NCBI GenBank assembly: GCA_964609095.1
Contig: CAZSQN010000001.1
Location: 278,117 to 342,116 of the forward strand
Direction: 5' to 3'
Length of the DNA: 64,000 nt
Source of the DNA: an uncultured Gammaproteobacteria bacterium
GTDB lineage: Bacteria; Patescibacteriota; Patescibacteriia; CAZSQN01
Shown: positions 5,008 to 64,000 of the stretch, one piece after another
How the letters are laid out: each line of letters starts with the position of its first letter
Numbering within the stretch: the stretch's first letter is position 1
The notes under the pieces: generated by a model
The model's database searches: none
Seen by the model: the letters and a program-made list of their open reading frames with translations, nothing else
What the model was told of the DNA's origin: nothing
Translations under genes and position numbers: made by a program

Positions 5008-5174
5008 TGTCAATTTGCGATAGGACTTTCGGCATCAGCGTTGTTTGCAAGCATTGCGGCGGAAGAATGATTGTTCATAAATGCTTTAGGCACAATCCGA
5101 AAATTCCCGCAAAATGCCCTCATTGCGGCAAGAGGAATTGGGTCAAGCTCAAGAAAAAGCAAAACCGAGCTTAA
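5007..5174 (+). CDS. Small zinc-ribbon protein (55 aa, two CxxC pairs)
   Basis: Its ATG overlaps the folA stop (TGATG). Translation is [55 protein letters not shown], and a terminator follows. It is below the 60-aa cut-off of the ORF track. Confidence 0.5.
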   Translation: MSICDRTFGISVVCKHCGGRMIVHKCFRHNPKIPAKCPHCGKRNWVKLKKKQNRA

Positions 5175-5185
5175 TCGCTCGGCCT

Positions 5186-5225
5186 GCCCCGCATAGAGCC
5201 ATGCTCTTGTGCGGGGCTCTTTTTA
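5186..5225 (+). terminator. Rho-independent terminator
   Basis: The sequence is gccccgca...tgcggggc followed by ctcttttt. Confidence 0.7.
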
Positions 5226-5284
5226 TGAAGTGTTGTTATATATCCCGCTAACATTGCATACCATGGATAATGGGATAGGGCCGC

Positions 5285-6252: not shown

Positions 6253-6534
6253 ATGCTCAAAAAGTCGTTTCTGCTTTTTTTGCGGCTTGTTGCCGCGGCG
6301 ATTGTCCTTACCCCGGCAGTTTTTCTGCTCTTTTGCATGGGTCTTGTGGTATATGACCTTTTTGCATATGGCTGGCAGCTGCCGCCTTTCCAGTACGGCA
6401 GAACAGAAGTTGTCTGTTATGGCGCAGGCGCAATACTTTGGATAGGAGCCGGCACCATCTTGCTTGTAATGAGCCCTCTCATCCTCGGAAAACTTTTTCC
6501 TTCTCTTGAAGGCAAAAAAGAAGGGGACAAGTAA
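6253..6534 (+). CDS. Small membrane protein (93 aa, 2-3 TM)
   Basis: The SD ggagggga precedes the ATG at 6253, 2 nt after the upstream stop. Translation is MLKKSFLLFLRLVAAAIVLTPAVFLLFCMGLVVYDLF... Confidence 0.55.
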   Translation: MLKKSFLLFLRLVAAAIVLTPAVFLLFCMGLVVYDLFAYGWQLPPFQYGRTEVVCYGAGAILWIGAGTILLVMSPLILGKLFPSLEGKKEGDK

Positions 6535-6545
6535 AGTGTTCAAAA

Positions 6546-6574
6546 AACCGAGTCTTTAAAGGCTCGGTTCTTTA
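6546..6574 (+). terminator. Rho-independent terminator, copy 2
   Basis: The sequence is aaccgagtctttaaaggctcggttcttta. Confidence 0.7.
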
Positions 6575-6596
6575 TATATTTAAATTTTTTAAATAT

Positions 6597-8790
<2,194 letters not shown>

Positions 8791-29424: not shown

Positions 29425-29596
29425 TAACTCATTTAGTGTTATTACTATAATTGGCTCAACGTGGCCAAAAATTGGCGAAACCTTTGGCCTGTCATTCCCG
29501 TGTAAACGGGAATCCAGGCGCTCAAATTATTGGTTTAGTAATTGTGGATTCCCGCTTTCGCGGGAATGACAATCGGCGAAACCCTAAATGAGTTCG
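29425..29596. mobile_element. MITE-like palindromic element, family A, copy 3 (diverged)
   Basis: Outer 11-bp inverted repeats aactcatttag / ctaaatgagtt enclose gtcattcccgtgtaaacgggaatcc ... ggattcccgctttcgcgggaatgac. Confidence 0.65.
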
Positions 29597-48196: not shown

Positions 48197-48282
48197 AATA
48201 CGAATCGCCACGGATAGGTGCGAATCGCGCGAATTCGCGGATATGCATATTCGATGATTCGCATAAAATTCGTAAATTCGTA
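48197..48282. repeat. GCGAAT/ATTCGC palindrome-family tract (promoter region of mutM)
   Basis: The tract is acgaatcgcc...gtgcgaatcgcgcgaattcgcggatatgcatattcgatgattcgcataaaattcgtaaattcgta, with related tracts at 19772, 20307, 32915, 49797, 56637 and 63933. Confidence 0.7.
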
Positions 48283-48292
48283 TTATATTTTT

Positions 48293-49120
48293 ATGCCGGA
48301 GCTTCCCGAAGTAGAAACGATTAAAAGGCAGATGGAACGCGCCATTAAAGGGCGCACTGTTTTGGGTGTTGAAGTTATCAAATCTAAAAAGATAAACGTG
48401 CCGGCCAAAGAATTTATCAAGGCCGTAAAAGGCGCGAAAATAAAGAGCATTGGACGCCGCGCCAAAATGTTTATCATTGGTTTTAGCAGCGGCTGGACGG
48501 CTGTCATCCATTTAATAATGACCGGCCGGCTTTTACTTAAACCTCAATCCTCAAAGCCCACGCCGCATACTTTTGTTGTCTTCACGCTTGCCGGAGGCAA
48601 AAAACTTTTTTGGGACGATATCCGCAAGTTTGGATTTTTAAAAATGGTTAAGACAGAAAAATTGTCTGAATTTCTGGGAAGTTATGGTTTGGGCCCAGAG
48701 CCGCTCCAGAAAGATTTCAGCGCGGAGAAATTAAAACAATGCCTGCGCAAATACGGCCGCAAGAAGATTAAGCCGCTTCTAATGGAACAGCAATGCGTTG
48801 CCGGCATCGGAAACATTTACGCCGCTGAAATCCTGGCTTACGCCGGCGTGCACCCGCTACGTTTAGCAGGCGCGTTGTCCGAAAAAGAAGTTAAACGGAT
48901 GCACGAAGGCATGAAAAAGATTCTTTCCTCCGCCATTGCCAAGAGAGGCACCTCCGCCGACGCTTACGTGGACCTTTACGGGAAAACGGGTGAATTTGTT
49001 CCTGTGTTAAAAGTTTACGGACGCGAAGGGGAAAAGTGCGCTTATTGCCGCAAAGGCGTGATAAAAAAAATAGTTTTGGGAGGCAGAGGAACGTATTTTT
49101 GCCCGAAACACCAGAGTTAA
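48293..49120 (+). CDS. mutM: Formamidopyrimidine-DNA glycosylase
   Basis: It has the N-terminal MPELPEVETI and a C-terminal zinc finger CAYCRKG...GGRGTYFCPKHQ. Confidence 0.93.
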   Translation: MPELPEVETIKRQMERAIKGRTVLGVEVIKSKKINVPAKEFIKAVKGAKIKSIGRRAKMFIIGFSSGWTAVIHLIMTGRLLLKPQSSKPTPHTFVVFTLAGGKKLFWDDIRKFGFLKMVKTEKLSEFLGSYGLGPEPLQKDFSAEKLKQCLRKYGRKKIKPLLMEQQCVAGIGNIYAAEILAYAGVHPLRLAGALSEKEVKRMHEGMKKILSSAIAKRGTSADAYVDLYGKTGEFVPVLKVYGREGEKCAYCRKGVIKKIVLGGRGTYFCPKHQS

Positions 49121-49190
49121 TTTCAGATTTCAAATTGTAGATTTCAAATTTAAAAAGTAAATCTAAAATCTGAAATCATAAATCTGAAAT
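49121..49190. repeat. AT-rich imperfect palindrome built from TTTCAGATTT / AAATCTGAAA units
   Basis: tttcagatttcaaattgtagatttcaaattt ... aaatctaaaatctgaaatcataaatctgaaat. A related tract is at 22227-22305, and in-frame AAATCTG x4 repeats lie inside prmC (19382-19414; 19181-19210). Confidence 0.6.
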
Positions 49191-49191
49191 T

Positions 49192-49797
49192 ATGTTTGAT
49201 TCTCTCACCATAGATACATTGCGCGATTATTCATGGCTCGGTTATGCGATTCTGTTTATCGGCATGGTTTTTGAAGGCGAGTCGGTTTTGATGATTGTCG
49301 CCACTTCATCGCGATTGGGAATTATTTCACCGTTTTTTGTGTGGCTTTTCGCCGTCGCCGGCGTGATTGTCGGCGATATTTTCTGGTTTCTGCTTGGCGG
49401 AAAAGTCGGCGCGAAACTTCTCTCCCGTTACGGAAAAATCCTTTTTATCACGGAGGCGCGCGTGGCGGCGCTCTCCCGCTACCTGAATTCCTCGCAAAAG
49501 AAGGCGGGCGGCCTTATTTTTCTGGCAAAGTATCTATACGGCTTTACGCATTTGACCTTAATCACAATCGGCGCCTCGCGCTTGCGGTTTCGGACATTTA
49601 TTATTTACACCGTTCCGGCGGCAATACTGTGGGTTTCAATTTTTTTTGCCGCCGGATACGTTTATGCCGACGCGGTTAAGGATTTAGAAAATAATCTGCC
49701 GCGCGTTCTCGGAGGGCTCGCGCTTATTATCGTTATAGTGACTTTTGTATCAAAATTATTGGGAAGATATTTTGAGAAAAAGCATTTAAAAATATAA
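49192..49797 (+). CDS. DedA-family (VTT domain) membrane protein
   Basis: It has the DedA signature region FEGESVLMIVA...FVWLFAVAGVIVGDIFWFLLG and multiple TM helices. Confidence 0.8.
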   Translation: MFDSLTIDTLRDYSWLGYAILFIGMVFEGESVLMIVATSSRLGIISPFFVWLFAVAGVIVGDIFWFLLGGKVGAKLLSRYGKILFITEARVAALSRYLNSSQKKAGGLIFLAKYLYGFTHLTLITIGASRLRFRTFIIYTVPAAILWVSIFFAAGYVYADAVKDLENNLPRVLGGLALIIVIVTFVSKLLGRYFEKKHLKI

Positions 49798-60192: not shown

Positions 60193-61455
60193 GTGAAAAC
60201 CGCGCGAGCAATTTTTATCACCGCGCTTATCGTTGCCGCCGGAGCGGCGCTGCTTTCATATTTAAATCTTGCCGGCAAATTGCCCGCGTCAATCAGTTTT
60301 TTAAAAAGCCGTCGCGACGAGGAATTGCAGCGCCGGCCATCAATCATAGCCCCGCTTCTTCCGTCCGAGCTTAAAGAAACAGAGCTTGAGGCGCCGTTCC
60401 CGCTGCGCACGGCCGAGCTGGGGGCCGTAAGAAAGCTTTCCATCCCCAATGGCTGGAAGGCAAACATTTTTACTTCCGAAGTTCCAAGAGCCAGATTTTT
60501 CGCTTTGCGCGAAGACGGCGTGCTTTTTTTATCTCTTTCCAAAGAGGGCAAAGTTGTCGCGCTTCCTGATAAAAATAAGGACGGCGTCGCCGACAGGGTT
60601 ATCACCGTTGCCGACGGGCTTGATTTTCCGCATGGCCTGGCTTTTCAAGGTCCCTGGCTTTATGTGGCTGAAACATCAAGAATTATGCGCTATCGCGACC
60701 TGAACGGCGATTATATGCCGGATCTAAAGCAGAGCGTTGTTCCCAATCTTCCCGAAGGCGGAAACCACATCTCGCGCACGATTGCTTTTGGGCCGGACGG
60801 GAAATTGTATGTTTCGGTCGGCTCTTCGTGCAATGTTTGCGTGGACGACCCGCGCCGCGCCGCCATTTTGCGTTTTGGCCCAAACGGCGAGAATGAAGAA
60901 ATTTTTGCCTCCGGTTTAAGAAACGCGGTGGGAATTGTTTTTCATCCCGAAACAGGCGAGCTCTACGTCACGGATAACGGCAGGGATTTTTTAGGCGATG
61001 ACGAACCGCCGGAAGAAGTGAATATAATCAAAGAAGGGAAAAAATACGGCTGGCCCGGATGTTTTGGAGACAGGCGGCCTGATCCGGATTTAAAGACATC
61101 ACAAGAGTATTGCGATATGACGGAGCGGCCGTATCTGGCGCTCGCGGCGCACAGCGCGCCTTTGGGCCTGCGCTTCTTGGAAGACGAACGGATTCCTTCC
61201 GAATACAGAGGGAGTTTGCTGGTTGCCTTTCACGGTTCTTGGAACCGCAGCGTACCTACCGGTTATAAGATATTGCGCGCGAGAAAAACTCCCACGGGGG
61301 AGCTGGTTACGGATGATTTCGCGACCGGCTGGATTAGCAACGGAGAAGTGTGGGGGCGTCCGGTTGATATTATTACCGGTTCTGACGGAGCCGTTTACGT
61401 TTCTGATGATTTAGCCGGAGCGGTGTATAGATTCACCCCGCCGGGTAAAGAATGA
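60193..61455 (+). CDS. PQQ-dependent sugar dehydrogenase-like beta-propeller (GSDH/YliI family)
   Basis: It has a signal/TM sequence and the motifs HGLAF..., GPDGKLYVSVGS, LRNAVGIVFHPETGELYVTDNGRD and GWPGCFG. Confidence 0.65.
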   Translation: MKTARAIFITALIVAAGAALLSYLNLAGKLPASISFLKSRRDEELQRRPSIIAPLLPSELKETELEAPFPLRTAELGAVRKLSIPNGWKANIFTSEVPRARFFALREDGVLFLSLSKEGKVVALPDKNKDGVADRVITVADGLDFPHGLAFQGPWLYVAETSRIMRYRDLNGDYMPDLKQSVVPNLPEGGNHISRTIAFGPDGKLYVSVGSSCNVCVDDPRRAAILRFGPNGENEEIFASGLRNAVGIVFHPETGELYVTDNGRDFLGDDEPPEEVNIIKEGKKYGWPGCFGDRRPDPDLKTSQEYCDMTERPYLALAAHSAPLGLRFLEDERIPSEYRGSLLVAFHGSWNRSVPTGYKILRARKTPTGELVTDDFATGWISNGEVWGRPVDIITGSDGAVYVSDDLAGAVYRFTPPGKE

Positions 61456-61473
61456 AGTTTGGGGCCCACATCA

Positions 61474-61503
61474 AAGCCGCCCTCTGCAAGGCGGCTTTTG
61501 GTT
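61474..61503. terminator. Bidirectional terminator between convergent genes
   Basis: The sequence is aagccgccctctgcaaggcggcttttgg. Confidence 0.65.
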
Positions 61504-61523
61504 TTGAAAAATCGTTCAGTTAT

Positions 61524-62192
61524 TTATTTCTCTTTTTTAACCGATACCGCAATAAAAAATGTGCCAAGATTAAGATTTTCCACTTCAACATTTCCAAAAA
61601 TTTCTTTCATTTTTTCCGGAATATTTTTAGAAGGATCCCAGGCGGCGAATTTTGAATAAATTATTTTAACTAAAGGATTAAGAAATTTTAGGAATCCCGT
61701 AAAAAGACGAGCGTCGCAAACAACCAATTTCCCTCCAAAGCGAAGAACATCGTGACATCTTTTAAGCGCTTTTTCCCAATCGGGAATCGCGCTAATTCCA
61801 AGAACGCTTACAACGCCATCAAAATTGTTTTCGGTTATTTTAAGTTGTGCCGCGTCGCCCTGAACTAATTTTATATTGCTCCAGCCATTTCGCTTAGATA
61901 ATTGTTTTGCGGCATCAAGCATCTCTTGGCTATAATCAAAACCTAGGATAAAACCATCTTTACCGATCGCTTCTATTATGTAAGGAAAATTTTTACCAGA
62001 ACCGCAGGCAACTTCCAGGGCCTCGCCGCCTCTTTTTAACCCCATCTTTTTAATTGCTCGGCTTCTTATGTTTTTTGCTCTTCCTAAAAATGTGACTATA
62101 TCTTGGGCGCTGTAAAGAGAGGGAAATCTTCCCCAAAAGGAATATACTTTTTTTACCTTCTTTAATTTGTCCGTTTGTAAATCTTTGGTCAT
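61524..62192 (-). CDS. Class I SAM-dependent methyltransferase
   Basis: It has motif I (LEVACGSGKN), an acidic motif II (ILGFDYSQEM) and the methyltransferase-11-like fold. Confidence 0.8.
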   Translation of the reverse strand: MTKDLQTDKLKKVKKVYSFWGRFPSLYSAQDIVTFLGRAKNIRSRAIKKMGLKRGGEALEVACGSGKNFPYIIEAIGKDGFILGFDYSQEMLDAAKQLSKRNGWSNIKLVQGDAAQLKITENNFDGVVSVLGISAIPDWEKALKRCHDVLRFGGKLVVCDARLFTGFLKFLNPLVKIIYSKFAAWDPSKNIPEKMKEIFGNVEVENLNLGTFFIAVSVKKEK

Positions 62193-62252
62193 TTTTTATA
62201 TGGATTGAATAGTTTATAAAAACTTTATTATAAGCGGCCCCGTAGCCAGATT

Positions 62253-62342
62253 GCGTATAACGTATGCGACTATACGAAGTTGGCGAAGCTAATTTGGGAA
62301 ACCGAAGTGCAACGAGGTTTCCGTATAGTCGCTGTTATACGC
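62253..62342. repeat. attC-like imperfect palindrome (about 90 bp) with internal hairpin
   Basis: Left arm gcgtataac-gtat-gcgactatacg pairs with right arm cgtatagtcgc-tgttatacgc. The central hairpin is gggaaaccgaagtgcaacgaggtttcc. The terminal GTATAAC/GTTATAC resemble the integron core sites RYYYAAC/GTTRRRY. Confidence 0.45.
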
Positions 62343-62413
62343 CCCGACGACTGAAAGGAGGAGAGCGCAGCGGGGCACGGAGCGTAGCGGAGTGAGTCGA
62401 GAAAATATTTCAT

Positions 62414-62950
62414 CTATTTAGGGGCTTTTTGTTCATTAAGTTTCTGAATACGTTTATTTAGTAAAGGGGTAAAATGATTTTTGTAGCGTTTCTGAAGATC
62501 TGATAATCGCCAATCTTTTCCAGTAATTTTTTTCCTGCATAGAGAAGAGCCACAATTACAATCCCATTTTGCCACATAATTTTCATCAGCTTCCCACAAA
62601 ATGTAATCAGCGGTGAGTTCTTCATTTGTATGTATATCTCTACGCGCAACAAGGGTGAAAGCATTTTTCATCCAGACATTGGGGTCACAAGAATGATTTA
62701 TGAAATAAGTAAGGTCATCGCCGCGCTCTTCAACGGTAAATAAATCCTCATCGAGTTGCATAACAACTTTTCCCTCTTGATTTTTAGCTTTCATCGCTTC
62801 TTCTTTTGAAACATAATCACCACCCCAAATGATCACCATTTCACCTGCTCTGATATTCGCTTTTGCAAACATTCCTCGACCCTGAAGCGGCGATGATCGT
62901 ATTTCAACTTTTGAACTCAACGATGATTTCTCGGGATATTTTACTTTCAT
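62414..62950 (-). CDS. SET-domain protein (putative protein-lysine methyltransferase)
   Basis: It has the SET motifs GRGMFA, NHSCDPN and ELTADY, and a post-SET Cys cluster CNCGSSLC. Confidence 0.8.
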   Translation of the reverse strand: MKVKYPEKSSLSSKVEIRSSPLQGRGMFAKANIRAGEMVIIWGGDYVSKEEAMKAKNQEGKVVMQLDEDLFTVEERGDDLTYFINHSCDPNVWMKNAFTLVARRDIHTNEELTADYILWEADENYVAKWDCNCGSSLCRKKITGKDWRLSDLQKRYKNHFTPLLNKRIQKLNEQKAPK

Positions 62951-63109
62951 ACTTAATTAATTGTGGCTCTCCGAAGTTTATAAAATTTGTTGCAAAAAGC
63001 CCCTCCTAAAATATTTTCTCGATTGCGTATAACTCGTTTATATATTGAGTGTTGGTTTAAAGTATACAATAATTTGTGTGTTATATCAACCTTGTGATAA
63101 GGTTACTAC

Positions 63110-63922
63110 ATGGCCAATCTATTGGATATAGTAAGACGAGAAATGAAATTGCGCAATTACAGCCCAAAAACAATTGAGGCATACACGCGCGTGATAAAAG
63201 ATGCCTATGTCTTTTTTGGACGGTCCTTGCGAGAGGTTTCGGCGGAGCAGATAAAAGAGTATTTGTACGTTAAGCAGAAACAAAAATTATCCAGCCAAAC
63301 TATTTCTCTCTACGGCAACGCATTGAATTATTTATACACGCAAATATATCGTCAGGATAATTTTCATAAATTTTCTCATCCCAAACGATCACAGCGCCTG
63401 CCTATAGTATTAAATAGAGATGAGATTCATCGCCTGATTGAGCTAACCGCAAACCCCAAACATCGGGCTATTCTTGCTCTAACCTACGCGGCCGGGTTGC
63501 GCGTGAGCGAGGTGGTCAAAATGCGCGTGCGCGACATAGATTTGGAAGCGCTCACGGTAACGGTTAGGCAAGGCAAGGGCAGCAAAGATCGGCTGACGGT
63601 ATTTTCTGAAAAGTTAAAGCCGGTTCTTACTGCTTTTATTGCCGGCCGATCAGGTGATGAACATCTGTTTATAAGCGAGCGAGGCGGCGGACTTACCGCG
63701 GCAACCGCTCAAAAAGTTTTTCACCAAGCCATGCGGCGCGCCGGTATCCAAAAAGACGCGACCTTTCATTCGCTGCGCCATAGTTTTGCCACGCATTTGC
63801 TGGAAAATGGCGTTGATGTGCGCTATGTTCAGGAACTTTTGGGACACCAAAACATCCGGACAACGCAAATATACACTCATGTCACCAATCCAATGCTAAA
63901 AAACATCAAAAGTCCGTTATAA
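63110..63922 (+). CDS. Tyrosine recombinase (XerC/XerD/IntI-related integrase)
   Basis: It has an N-terminal SAM-like domain. The catalytic residues are R (AGLRVSE), the HxxR motif (LRHSFATHLL) and Y (IYTHV). The sequence is strongly IntI-like around MRVRDIDLEALTVTVRQGKGSKDR, but it lacks the roughly 30-aa IntI-specific insertion. Confidence 0.85.
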   Translation: MANLLDIVRREMKLRNYSPKTIEAYTRVIKDAYVFFGRSLREVSAEQIKEYLYVKQKQKLSSQTISLYGNALNYLYTQIYRQDNFHKFSHPKRSQRLPIVLNRDEIHRLIELTANPKHRAILALTYAAGLRVSEVVKMRVRDIDLEALTVTVRQGKGSKDRLTVFSEKLKPVLTAFIAGRSGDEHLFISERGGGLTAATAQKVFHQAMRRAGIQKDATFHSLRHSFATHLLENGVDVRYVQELLGHQNIRTTQIYTHVTNPMLKNIKSPL

Positions 63923-63932
63923 TATAGATATA

Positions 63933-64000
63933 ATACGAATTTACGAATAAAATGCGAATCCACGAATATGCGAATTCGCGAATCCGCGCGATTCGCATAG
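63933..64000. repeat. GCGAAT/ATTCGC palindrome-family tract at the window end
   Basis: The tract is acgaatttacgaataaaatgcgaatccacgaatatgcgaattcgcgaatccgcgcgattcgcatag. Confidence 0.7.

Follow-up and report, generated by a model that had tools for sequence, protein, structure and literature searches.

Integrons are defined by an integrase, IntI, that carries a special insertion, together with attC sites, and IntI cleaves the bottom strand of a site at its AAC triplet. Two other arrangements bear on the present case: in streptococci the difSL site sits beside xerS, and the so-called pdif modules are bounded by oppositely oriented XerC/D sites. The IntI insertion contacts extrahelical bases in integron integrases (Ghaly 2022, PMC9668308, citing Messier and Roy 2001). 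CTX-phi is described as integrating into dif1 via a folded single-stranded attP hairpin (PMC3442271), and the pdif modules of Acinetobacter as genes flanked by XerC/XerD sites (PMC7399989). Here we describe a locus in a 64,000-nucleotide stretch of contig CAZSQN010000001.1 (this whole stretch is called the window below), where a tyrosine recombinase gene lies divergently beside a SET-domain gene that is bracketed by repeats and followed by a palindrome. The initial annotation of the window read this locus as integron-like, with a recombinase that lacks the IntI-specific additional domain. That reading is supported by the comparisons reported here and generalises to many genomes of the candidate phyla radiation (CPR). 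The related loci share a conserved architecture, a fixed orientation of sites, covarying site structures, a pairing of each site's distal strand with the arm of the next site, and recurring cassettes. In our judgement the locus is most probably a small example of a gene-cassette platform of integron-like type, widespread among Patescibacteria (CPR).

Foldback sites and a primary site beside the recombinase gene

All the features on which the initial annotation was built (open reading frames (ORFs), direct repeats, inverted repeats and palindrome) were found where it had placed them. The palindrome (62253-62342) does fold: its outer strands R'' (GCGTATAAC) and R' (GTTATACGC) and its inner strands L'' (GCGACTATACG) and L' (CGTATAGTCGC) pair around two internal hairpins, with a free energy of -28 kcal/mol (z = -2.4). 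In a comparison set of about 110 related loci, a regular expression for the 5' half of the palindrome gave 39 matches, 36 of them upstream of the recombinase gene on its sense strand, and most of these sites have an exact 11-nt complement 74-190 nt downstream, the sequence of which differs between sites. Read 5' to 3' on the recombinase-sense strand, the foldback sites share one order of parts: an arm ending in ..TAAC, of a family present in all related sites; an unpaired GT(n); L'', containing ..TAtnnG; hairpin 1 (AAGTTT..AAATTT); GGG and hairpin 2; L'; a single T; and R', beginning GTTA.... By eye, their lengths run from about 89 to 204 nt, AAC and GTT are kept, and the bulge is asymmetric (3-4 nt against 1 nt). 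The palindrome ends had been likened to integron core sites; this holds for the conserved AAC/GTT triplets, whereas most R''/R' pairs of the family break RYYYAAC/GTTRRRY.

The fold was examined for covariation in a 14-sequence alignment. In the 11-bp L''/L' helix 98.7% of the cells are paired, and 8 of its 11 pairs show double (compensatory) changes; hairpin 1 (8 bp) has 92.7% paired and a G·T wobble that is invariant in all 14 sequences; and R''/R', with 75.2% paired, is conserved only at TAAC/GTTA. None of 500 shuffles reached the observed covariation. R1, the covariance model derived from this alignment, gives the window site 86 bits for the + strand against 10.9 bits for the - strand; it has no further significant match elsewhere in the window. 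When 100 loci (693 kb) were searched with R1 on both strands at E <= 0.01, 61 matches were obtained, of which 58 lie on the recombinase-sense strand, every one upstream of the gene and none downstream of it on that strand. The other three are all in one locus, L055 (3508-3605, 7486-7582 and 11506-11594), the only one with sites on the strand opposite the recombinase gene and on both its sides, which suggests a platform that is inverted or differently organised. By hand tally, at least one foldback site is present in 26 of the 29 orthologous loci that have at least 0.6 kb upstream. The locus L042 has seven sites found by regular expression or model, one found by the model only, and a primary site; it comprises at least eight units. 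A motif, GAGCG(T/C)AGCGG(A/G)G, was seen in the spacers after R' (62355-62390 in the window) and in hairpin 1 loops (for example in L069, L026, L028 and L040); it may be an accessory binding site.

A site of another kind adjoins the gene itself. In 41 of 41 orthologous loci (20 from GTDB and 21 others from the Joint Genome Institute (JGI), NCBI and the window itself; recombinase identity 47-71%), a dif-like site lies 60-170 nt upstream of the recombinase start codon. This primary site begins with a left arm that varies but closes with TAA (pattern AyTTCnnnTAA), and CTCGTT and TTATrCGAAGT follow in this order. In the consensus of the 41 loci, inverted arms of about 10-11 bp flank a centre of 6-7 bp, as expected of a dif-type site; the arms are imperfect inverted copies of each other (consensus AyTTCGCATAA), so the anatomy of the primary site is dif-like. 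The unusual right arm of the window, TATATATTGAGTG, is common to its closest relatives, L036 and L116. In the upstream regions inspected, a TTGyrTnTTATrCGAA-type motif lies downstream of the primary site at a distance of about 45 nt. (C)TAAC is the exact starting point of four contigs, and for 10 of 41 the start lies no more than 125 nt away.

The 13-bp direct repeat noted in the initial annotation, GATTGCGTATAAC, is exact and has only its two copies (62249-62261 and 63021-63033) in the 64 kb. As stand-alone evidence it was dropped because it is too weak, 1.5 matches at no more than two mismatches being expected by chance for a 13-mer. Seen against the conserved sites, the two copies are best read as recombinase-binding left arms of the foldback and primary sites, not as target duplications.

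Cassette units and the SET cassette

Between consecutive sites we delimited 46 units with a median size of about 0.9 kb. In 34 of them the longest ORF is directed away from the recombinase and in 8 towards it; 4 have none. Among the cargo are a cytidine deaminase, methyltransferases, SET proteins, a trypsin-like protease, DUF711, AlaE, a restriction-modification system of the BglII type together with its controller protein, and numerous small ORFs that match nothing in Pfam; no replication or transfer genes were seen among the cargo genes annotated. The complete BglII-type restriction-modification system plus controller makes up one 2.4-kb unit, from foldback site to primary site, in L117-L119, so defence systems would travel as cassettes here.

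The units are linked by a pairing rule. In 28 of 35 informative pairs, R' pairs better with the left arm of the following site, counted in the direction of the recombinase, than with the arm of its own site. Its match to the following arm is perfect (9/9) in 23 of 43 pairs, compared with 6.4% for random arms. Such complementarity is what insertion of circles with a self-complementary site would leave behind, by the same composite-site logic as in integron arrays. In L042 a mismatch predicted a hidden site between a methyltransferase gene and a SET gene; the covariance model then located it at 5108-5245, with the expected arm TCGTATAAC.

In the window, the inverted repeats that had been reported around the SET gene consist of two fully identical blocks (62397-62410/63009-63022, 14 nt; 62420-62431/62993-63004, 12 nt) with an indel between them. 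Judged against controls that pair flanks of different units, 25 of 40 units lie above the 95th percentile of the inverted-repeat score (mean 15.7 vs 8.3 in controls). Many units have their repeats directly beside the sites, the left one next to R' and the right one next to the arm. On this comparison the inverted repeats around the SET gene are a general feature of these cassettes.

The SET cassette itself spans 62262-63033 and takes the first position, with the 13-bp left arm at both boundaries; the palindrome is its own site and not a separate neighbouring element. The comparison across related genomes that the initial annotation had proposed bears this out: the SET cassette as a whole, its arm and both of its inverted repeats included, is found again in L124 and L125, at 84% DNA identity. 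In L124 it is at least fourth from the recombinase side, and in L125 the DNA homology of the cassette ends at position 62395 of the window. The same SET cassette is thus found in different arrays with its boundary at the arm, which is the sign of mobility looked for in integrons. The window spacer between R' and the left inverted repeat also follows R' of a different cassette in L124. Nor is the SET gene held between identical flanks in all relatives, the outcome that had been named as speaking against mobility: relatives with a 70-71% identical recombinase carry a restriction-modification system or a 150-aa ORF at this place. Two further SET homologues (L120 and L122, 81-83% identical) were rejected as cassettes, their homology covering the ORF only and no sites being present. 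Set beside the flanked copies of L124 and L125, they indicate that SET occurs in two states, as an ordinary gene and in cassette form.

In L125 (GCA_053531415.1), positions 6511-8631 contain three foldback sites along with the SET cassette, and no recombinase is encoded within 6.5 kb; the layout resembles CALIN (clusters of attC sites lacking an integrase). Its neighbours include an S-layer C-terminal-domain gene, and the sister assembly L122 (GCA_053531455.1) has SecY, EMC3 and Yip1-type genes; some of these hosts may be archaeal (DPANN), which would hint at an exchange of cassettes across domains.

As to whether the window holds one cassette or two, which the initial annotation had left open, SET is a demonstrable cassette but the neighbouring methyltransferase is not, since no distal site was found for it in 61456-61523 by regular expression or covariance model. 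A GAAGTTTGGGG string at 61449-61462 was considered as such a site and set aside as probably due to chance. No homologues of this methyltransferase were found in other arrays; it may be a terminal cassette or further AT-rich cargo. A SET gene lies beside an S-adenosylmethionine (SAM) methyltransferase cassette both in L042 (4196-5718) and in the window (61524-62950), the methyltransferases being of the Methyltransf_33 and UbiE-like types, respectively, and the two SET proteins 31% identical; this neighbourhood could be a coincidence or a functional pairing.

Two kinds of junction bear on the point of exchange. In L018, an ORF-less insert of 184 nt has junctions of the type xxxTAA|GGTCC, and the homology of L124 with the window stops at TATAA|; from these junctions we infer a crossover at or near AA^C. 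The L018 insert is a highly structured repeat present three times (631-814, 1859-2042 and 2804-2987; 91-95% identical), each time after the ..TAA of one of three consecutive sites; it ends in its own arm, TTTTGCATAAC, and behaves like an empty cassette or a site hitchhiker. Similar units of 174-191 nt occur in L021 and L014.

The 3.1-kb contig L124 (ERZ1292621, Hainich groundwater) differs in its sites. Between its four cassettes lie minimal sites (arm TAAC-nnn-T-GTTAxxxGACC), without L boxes or hairpins, which still follow the rule that R' pairs with the next arm. These would represent a second, double-stranded-type class of site, and their lack of L boxes suggests that ordinary double-stranded recombination also occurs. 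One may then ask whether the whole system works by classical double-stranded site-specific recombination, the palindromes being composite double-stranded sites or cruciforms. The minimal sites (arm-CTCTTG-arm') fit this idea, and double-stranded exchange would predict the pairing rule equally. Yet in the full-size sites the arms are 70-190 bp apart, so that no double-stranded core site is possible; L''/L' and hairpin 1 covary without conservation of sequence; the invariant G·T would turn into an A·C mismatch if the other strand were to fold; and in 36 of 41 foldback sites, the orientation of which is fixed relative to the gene, the + strand gives a more stable fold than the - strand. We consider a purely double-stranded mechanism unlikely for these reasons. 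That ordinary intergenic palindromes merely happen to lie beside a housekeeping Xer gene, with functionless repeats, has hardly any probability left: the window does have other palindrome families and the 13-mer pair is weak when taken alone, but coincidence is refuted by the covariation, the site orientation, the conservation of the primary site, the pairing rule and the recurrence of the SET cassette, and the other palindromes of the window, among them a family with 25-nt arms described below, reach at most 12 bits when scored by the foldback model.

The recombinase and the layout of its locus

Protein models and solved structures bear on the resemblance of the recombinase to integron integrases, which the initial annotation had pointed out. 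The best solved relative of the recombinase is IntI4 of Vibrio (PDB 2a3v, 162.9 bits in two stretches), ahead of XerA (142 and 140 bits), XerD (108) and XerH (65). However, the cutoffs of the integron-integrase models are not reached, neither by TIGR02249 (213.1 bits in two stretches, cutoff 265) nor by PRK15417/NF011946 (143.9 bits, cutoff 435), whereas the XerA model NF040815, which NCBI names 'site-specific tyrosine recombinase/integron integrase', is passed (238.5 bits, cutoff 220). The IntI additional domain is absent, as had been noted: residues 205-245 of IntI4 have no counterpart, and the alignment to 2a3v splits in two there. The protein belongs to a family of thousands of members of about 270 aa, 60-77% identical, across Patescibacteria including Kuenenbacteria, Magasanikbacteria and Parcubacteria, and the catalytic R, K, H, R, H and Y are invariant or nearly so in 34 orthologues. 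Smyshlyaev et al. 2021 (PMC8138268) place such proteins in an Xer-related subgroup, 'Cand', with a presumed Xer-like role, and suggest that in taxa without Xer class-specific simple recombinases may compensate for its function.

The layout, too, resembles that of integrons, including sedentary chromosomal ones such as the Vibrio superintegron. In both, the recombinase gene is divergent from the adjacent primary site, from which arrays of mostly single-ORF, co-oriented units of about 0.5-1 kb extend, many of them of unknown function; an imperfect palindrome that keeps ..AAC and GTT.. at its ends closes each unit, the strand that folds serves the ORFs as template, and unpaired or bulged bases lie on the 5' arm between two boxes. 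The crossover proposed here (AA^C) and the composite sites are shared as well. Co-oriented cassettes, foldback sites, a divergent gene and a primary site are accordingly all present, the window itself containing one cassette. Unlike in integrons, the primary site is a symmetric dif-like dyad, and the foldback sites form a family of their own, with an L box (TATrCGAAGT), a hairpin 1 with the invariant G·T and a hairpin 2 starting with GGG; inverted repeats on either side of the ORF, specific to the cassette, often lengthen the stems, and minimal double-stranded sites exist too. A canonical integron (IntI, attI and attC) is accordingly a highly improbable explanation, even with a gene divergent from its cassettes, AAC...GTT at the site ends and IntI4 as the best PDB match: it is effectively refuted by the missing additional domain, and the failed integrase models, the usual violation of RYYYAAC/GTTRRRY by R''/R', and an L box and hairpin that are foreign to canonical attC sites point the same way. 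The system is integron-like and not a canonical integron, with a recombinase in the Xer-related 'Cand'/XerA-like group and sites that form a separate family.

With XerA-dif, XerS-difSL and XerH-difH the locus shares a simple recombinase of Xer size, the passing of the XerA model and a site with inverted arms adjoining the gene. It differs from them in that the site lies off the skew-defined terminus and is accompanied by arrays of co-oriented accessory-gene sites, and in that the recombinase scores higher against IntI4 than against the XerA, XerD and XerH structures. As with CTX-phi and other integrative mobile elements exploiting Xer (IMEX), a Xer-type enzyme would recombine a folded hairpin that imitates a double-stranded site, exchanging one strand pair, and arrays build up at one site; the cargo here, however, consists of single genes with no phage or plasmid functions, the elements are of about 0.5-2 kb and follow a modular rule, and the site family is conserved radiation-wide. 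The pdif modules are likewise discrete gene modules bounded by Xer-type sites, which the minimal sites of L124 resemble, but they are carried on plasmids, depend on two recombinases and have no foldback sites, where the present system has one recombinase and foldback sites.

These likenesses allow the locus to be read as a Xer/dif system with IMEX-type hitchhikers, the recombinase being the chromosome-dimer resolvase, the primary site its dif, and the cassettes exploiting the host Xer as CTX-phi does. Mechanistically this overlaps with a cassette platform, the difference being the purpose of the primary site. The dif-like dyad, the NF040815 score above cutoff, the high conservation of the family across CPR and the treatment of the 'Cand' subgroup as Xer-related (Smyshlyaev et al. 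2021, PMC8138268) all agree with it. On the other hand, GC skew is +0.064 upstream, -0.083 in the array, where the genes are on the - strand, and +0.164 downstream, with the flanking housekeeping genes staying on the + strand; the unchanged skew sign and flanking strand place the locus away from a skew-defined terminus, a local test that applies to this genome only, and other loci have no systematic flip of skew sign. Moreover, the cargo annotated consists of single accessory genes without the replication or transfer functions of their own that IMEX would have, and arrays accompany the gene in 26 of 29 loci. We therefore hold dimer resolution with hitchhiking cassettes to be rather unlikely, and return to the cassette platform as the preferred reading.

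The features of the locus are collected in Table 1. Over 61400-63200, from the methyltransferase through SET into the 5' part of the recombinase gene, the GC content falls from about 0.52 to about 0.37. The promoter-like element upstream of the recombinase gene matches the consensus at 10 of 12 positions, while promoter-like matches in the region are not above chance; it is at most suggestive of an analogue of the integron cassette promoter (Pc), from which the cassette would be expressed.

Table 1. Features of the cassette locus in the window (positions count from the first nucleotide of the window)
Feature	Position	Strand	Remarks
Class I SAM methyltransferase, UbiE/COQ5-like, 222 aa	61524-62192	-	In AT-rich island, outward of foldback site
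Foldback-site left arm (R'' side), GATTGCGTATAAC, direct-repeat copy 1	62249-62261	+	Putative crossover AA/C at its 3' end
attC-like foldback site of SET cassette	62250-62344	+	Fold, covariance model, family covariation
Foldback part R''	62253-62261		
Foldback part bulge, GTAT	62262-62265		
Foldback part L''	62266-62276		
Foldback part hairpin 1, AAGTTGGC/GCTAATTT	62277-62295		G·T wobbles present
Foldback part hairpin 2	62298-62321		
Foldback part L'	62322-62332		
Foldback part T	62333		
Foldback part R'	62334-62342		
Spacer from R' to left inverted repeat, 54 nt	62343-62396	+	Motif GAGCGCAGCGG / GGAGCGTAGCGGAG
Left inverted repeat of SET cassette	62397-62431		Overlaps 3' end of SET ORF
SET-domain protein, 178 aa, cassette cargo	62414-62950	-	Pfam PF00856, E = 5e-16
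Right inverted repeat of SET cassette	62993-63022		Abuts primary-site left arm
Primary (attI/dif-like) site	63021-63051	+	Conserved in orthologous loci
Primary-site left arm, GATTGCGTATAA(C), direct-repeat copy 2	63021-63033		
Primary-site centre, (C)TCGTT			
Primary-site right arm, TATATATTGAGTG	63039-63051		
Promoter-like TTGATA-17-TATACT	63061-63089	-	Points through primary site into cassette
Second conserved motif, TTGTGTGTTATATCAAC, right-arm-like	63073-63091	+	Putative accessory binding site or recombinase-promoter overlap
Tyrosine recombinase, 270 aa, CPR 'Cand'/XerA-like group	63110-63922	+	Pfam PF00589, PF13495

Other features of the window were considered as well. No known RNA families were found in the whole window (Rfam, gathering thresholds), and tRNA-linked integration was discarded since the window holds no tRNA or tmRNA gene. 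A replication origin near 8.7 kb, where the gene strand switches, was also discarded: the ORFs there are gyrB, DUF4147/MOFRL and FtsW and not dnaA/dnaN, and the GC skew stays positive across the window. An unrelated repeat, a perfect palindrome with 25-nt arms (TGTCATTCCCGCGAAAGCGGGAATC...GATTCCCGCTTTCGCGGGAATGACA), has three intergenic copies (8706-8772, 22381-22447 and 29490-29571). AT-rich inverted repeats of the 'ATTTCAGATTTCAAATT' type and clusters of 'GCGAATTCGCG/ACGAAT' occur at 1271-1394, 22220-22306, 49118-49192, 48229-48262 and 63949-63999, one such cluster lying directly 3' of the recombinase stop codon. Finally, independent Logan contigs (L001-L009; six samples, one study) that are identical to the window all end inside the foldback site from both sides, at 62286-62289 and 62346-62357, with a gap of about 56 nt between them. 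A coverage dip at the hairpin and population variants are candidate causes of these breaks; the palindrome arms are shorter than the k-mer of the Logan assembler, which we take to be k = 31.

A possible recombination route and its meaning

In the scheme that we propose, a cassette would be a DNA circle with its own site, made up of left arm (..TAA), C-GT, L'', two hairpins, L', T and R'. In the circular form R' would exactly complement the cassette's own left arm, and cassette-specific inverted repeats would often extend the stem outward. The reactive form would be a folded single strand, presumably the one that is sense for the recombinase gene and template for the cassette ORFs. Folded in this way, the site could imitate the primary site, the arm/R' duplex serving as its left arm and L''/L' stacked on hairpin 1 as the right-arm TATrCGAAGT, with a bulge of 3-4 nt on the 5' strand between the two duplexes. 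Such imitation would follow the principle of attC and likewise that of CTX-phi/XerCD. Strand exchange at or near AA^C would then insert the circle at the primary site, or excise it by recombining two sites; for the window this predicts an empty-site junction ...GTAGCCAGATTGCGTATAAC|TCGTTTATATATTGAG and a circle or tandem junction ...ATATTTTCTCGATTGCGTATAAC|GTATGCGACTATACG. The folding proposal follows from the covariation, the strand-specific G·T and the fixed orientation of the sites.

Several observations weigh against this reading and temper it. Excision and insertion by the recombinase are deduced from comparisons, not from experiment or reads. The window has a single foldback site and two identical arms, so that the pairing rule rests on the other loci. 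Elsewhere, R' fits its own arm better than the next one in 4 of the 35 informative pairs, with 3 ties, and some sites found by regular expression have no L' partner. The minimal sites of L124 could react only in the ordinary double-stranded form, and folding may therefore be dispensable. To these can be added the absence of a distal site from the interval searched beyond the methyltransferase gene, and the breaks of the Logan contigs inside the foldback site, for which neither a simple repeat nor population variation is established as the cause. Lastly, a recombinase that has no IntI insertion, passes the XerA model and is conserved like a housekeeping gene could have an Xer-type task as its main job.

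In the literature searched, including Smyshlyaev 2021 (PMC8138268) and Ghaly 2022 (PMC9668308), no description was found of CPR cassette arrays tied to such a recombinase; the CPR, the host lineage here, are without mention in the integron surveys consulted, such as Ghaly 2022. A CPR platform widens the question of how cassette systems are distributed. Going further, and only tentatively, it is conceivable that most CPR carry a chromosomal cassette-capture platform run by a single, vertically inherited Xer-like recombinase that acts on folded single-stranded sites without the IntI insertion. Such a platform would stand between Xer/dif and integrons as a living intermediate, or else as a parallel of independent origin, and would be a main accessory-gene route of these bacteria, possibly exchanging cassettes with DPANN as well.

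If the platform works as proposed, structure-specific cassette recombination needs no IntI domain, and the system would offer a concrete model for the origin of integron integrases from Xer-type ancestors. It would also explain the frequent breaks of CPR assemblies just upstream of the recombinase gene. Since SET is known here as an ordinary gene and also in cassette form, equipped with arms and inverted repeats, it gives a handle on the genesis of cassettes. For the tiny-genome CPR themselves, the locus would be a hotspot of horizontal gene gain, through which restriction-modification systems, methyltransferases, SET proteins and genes of unknown function may enter the chromosome.

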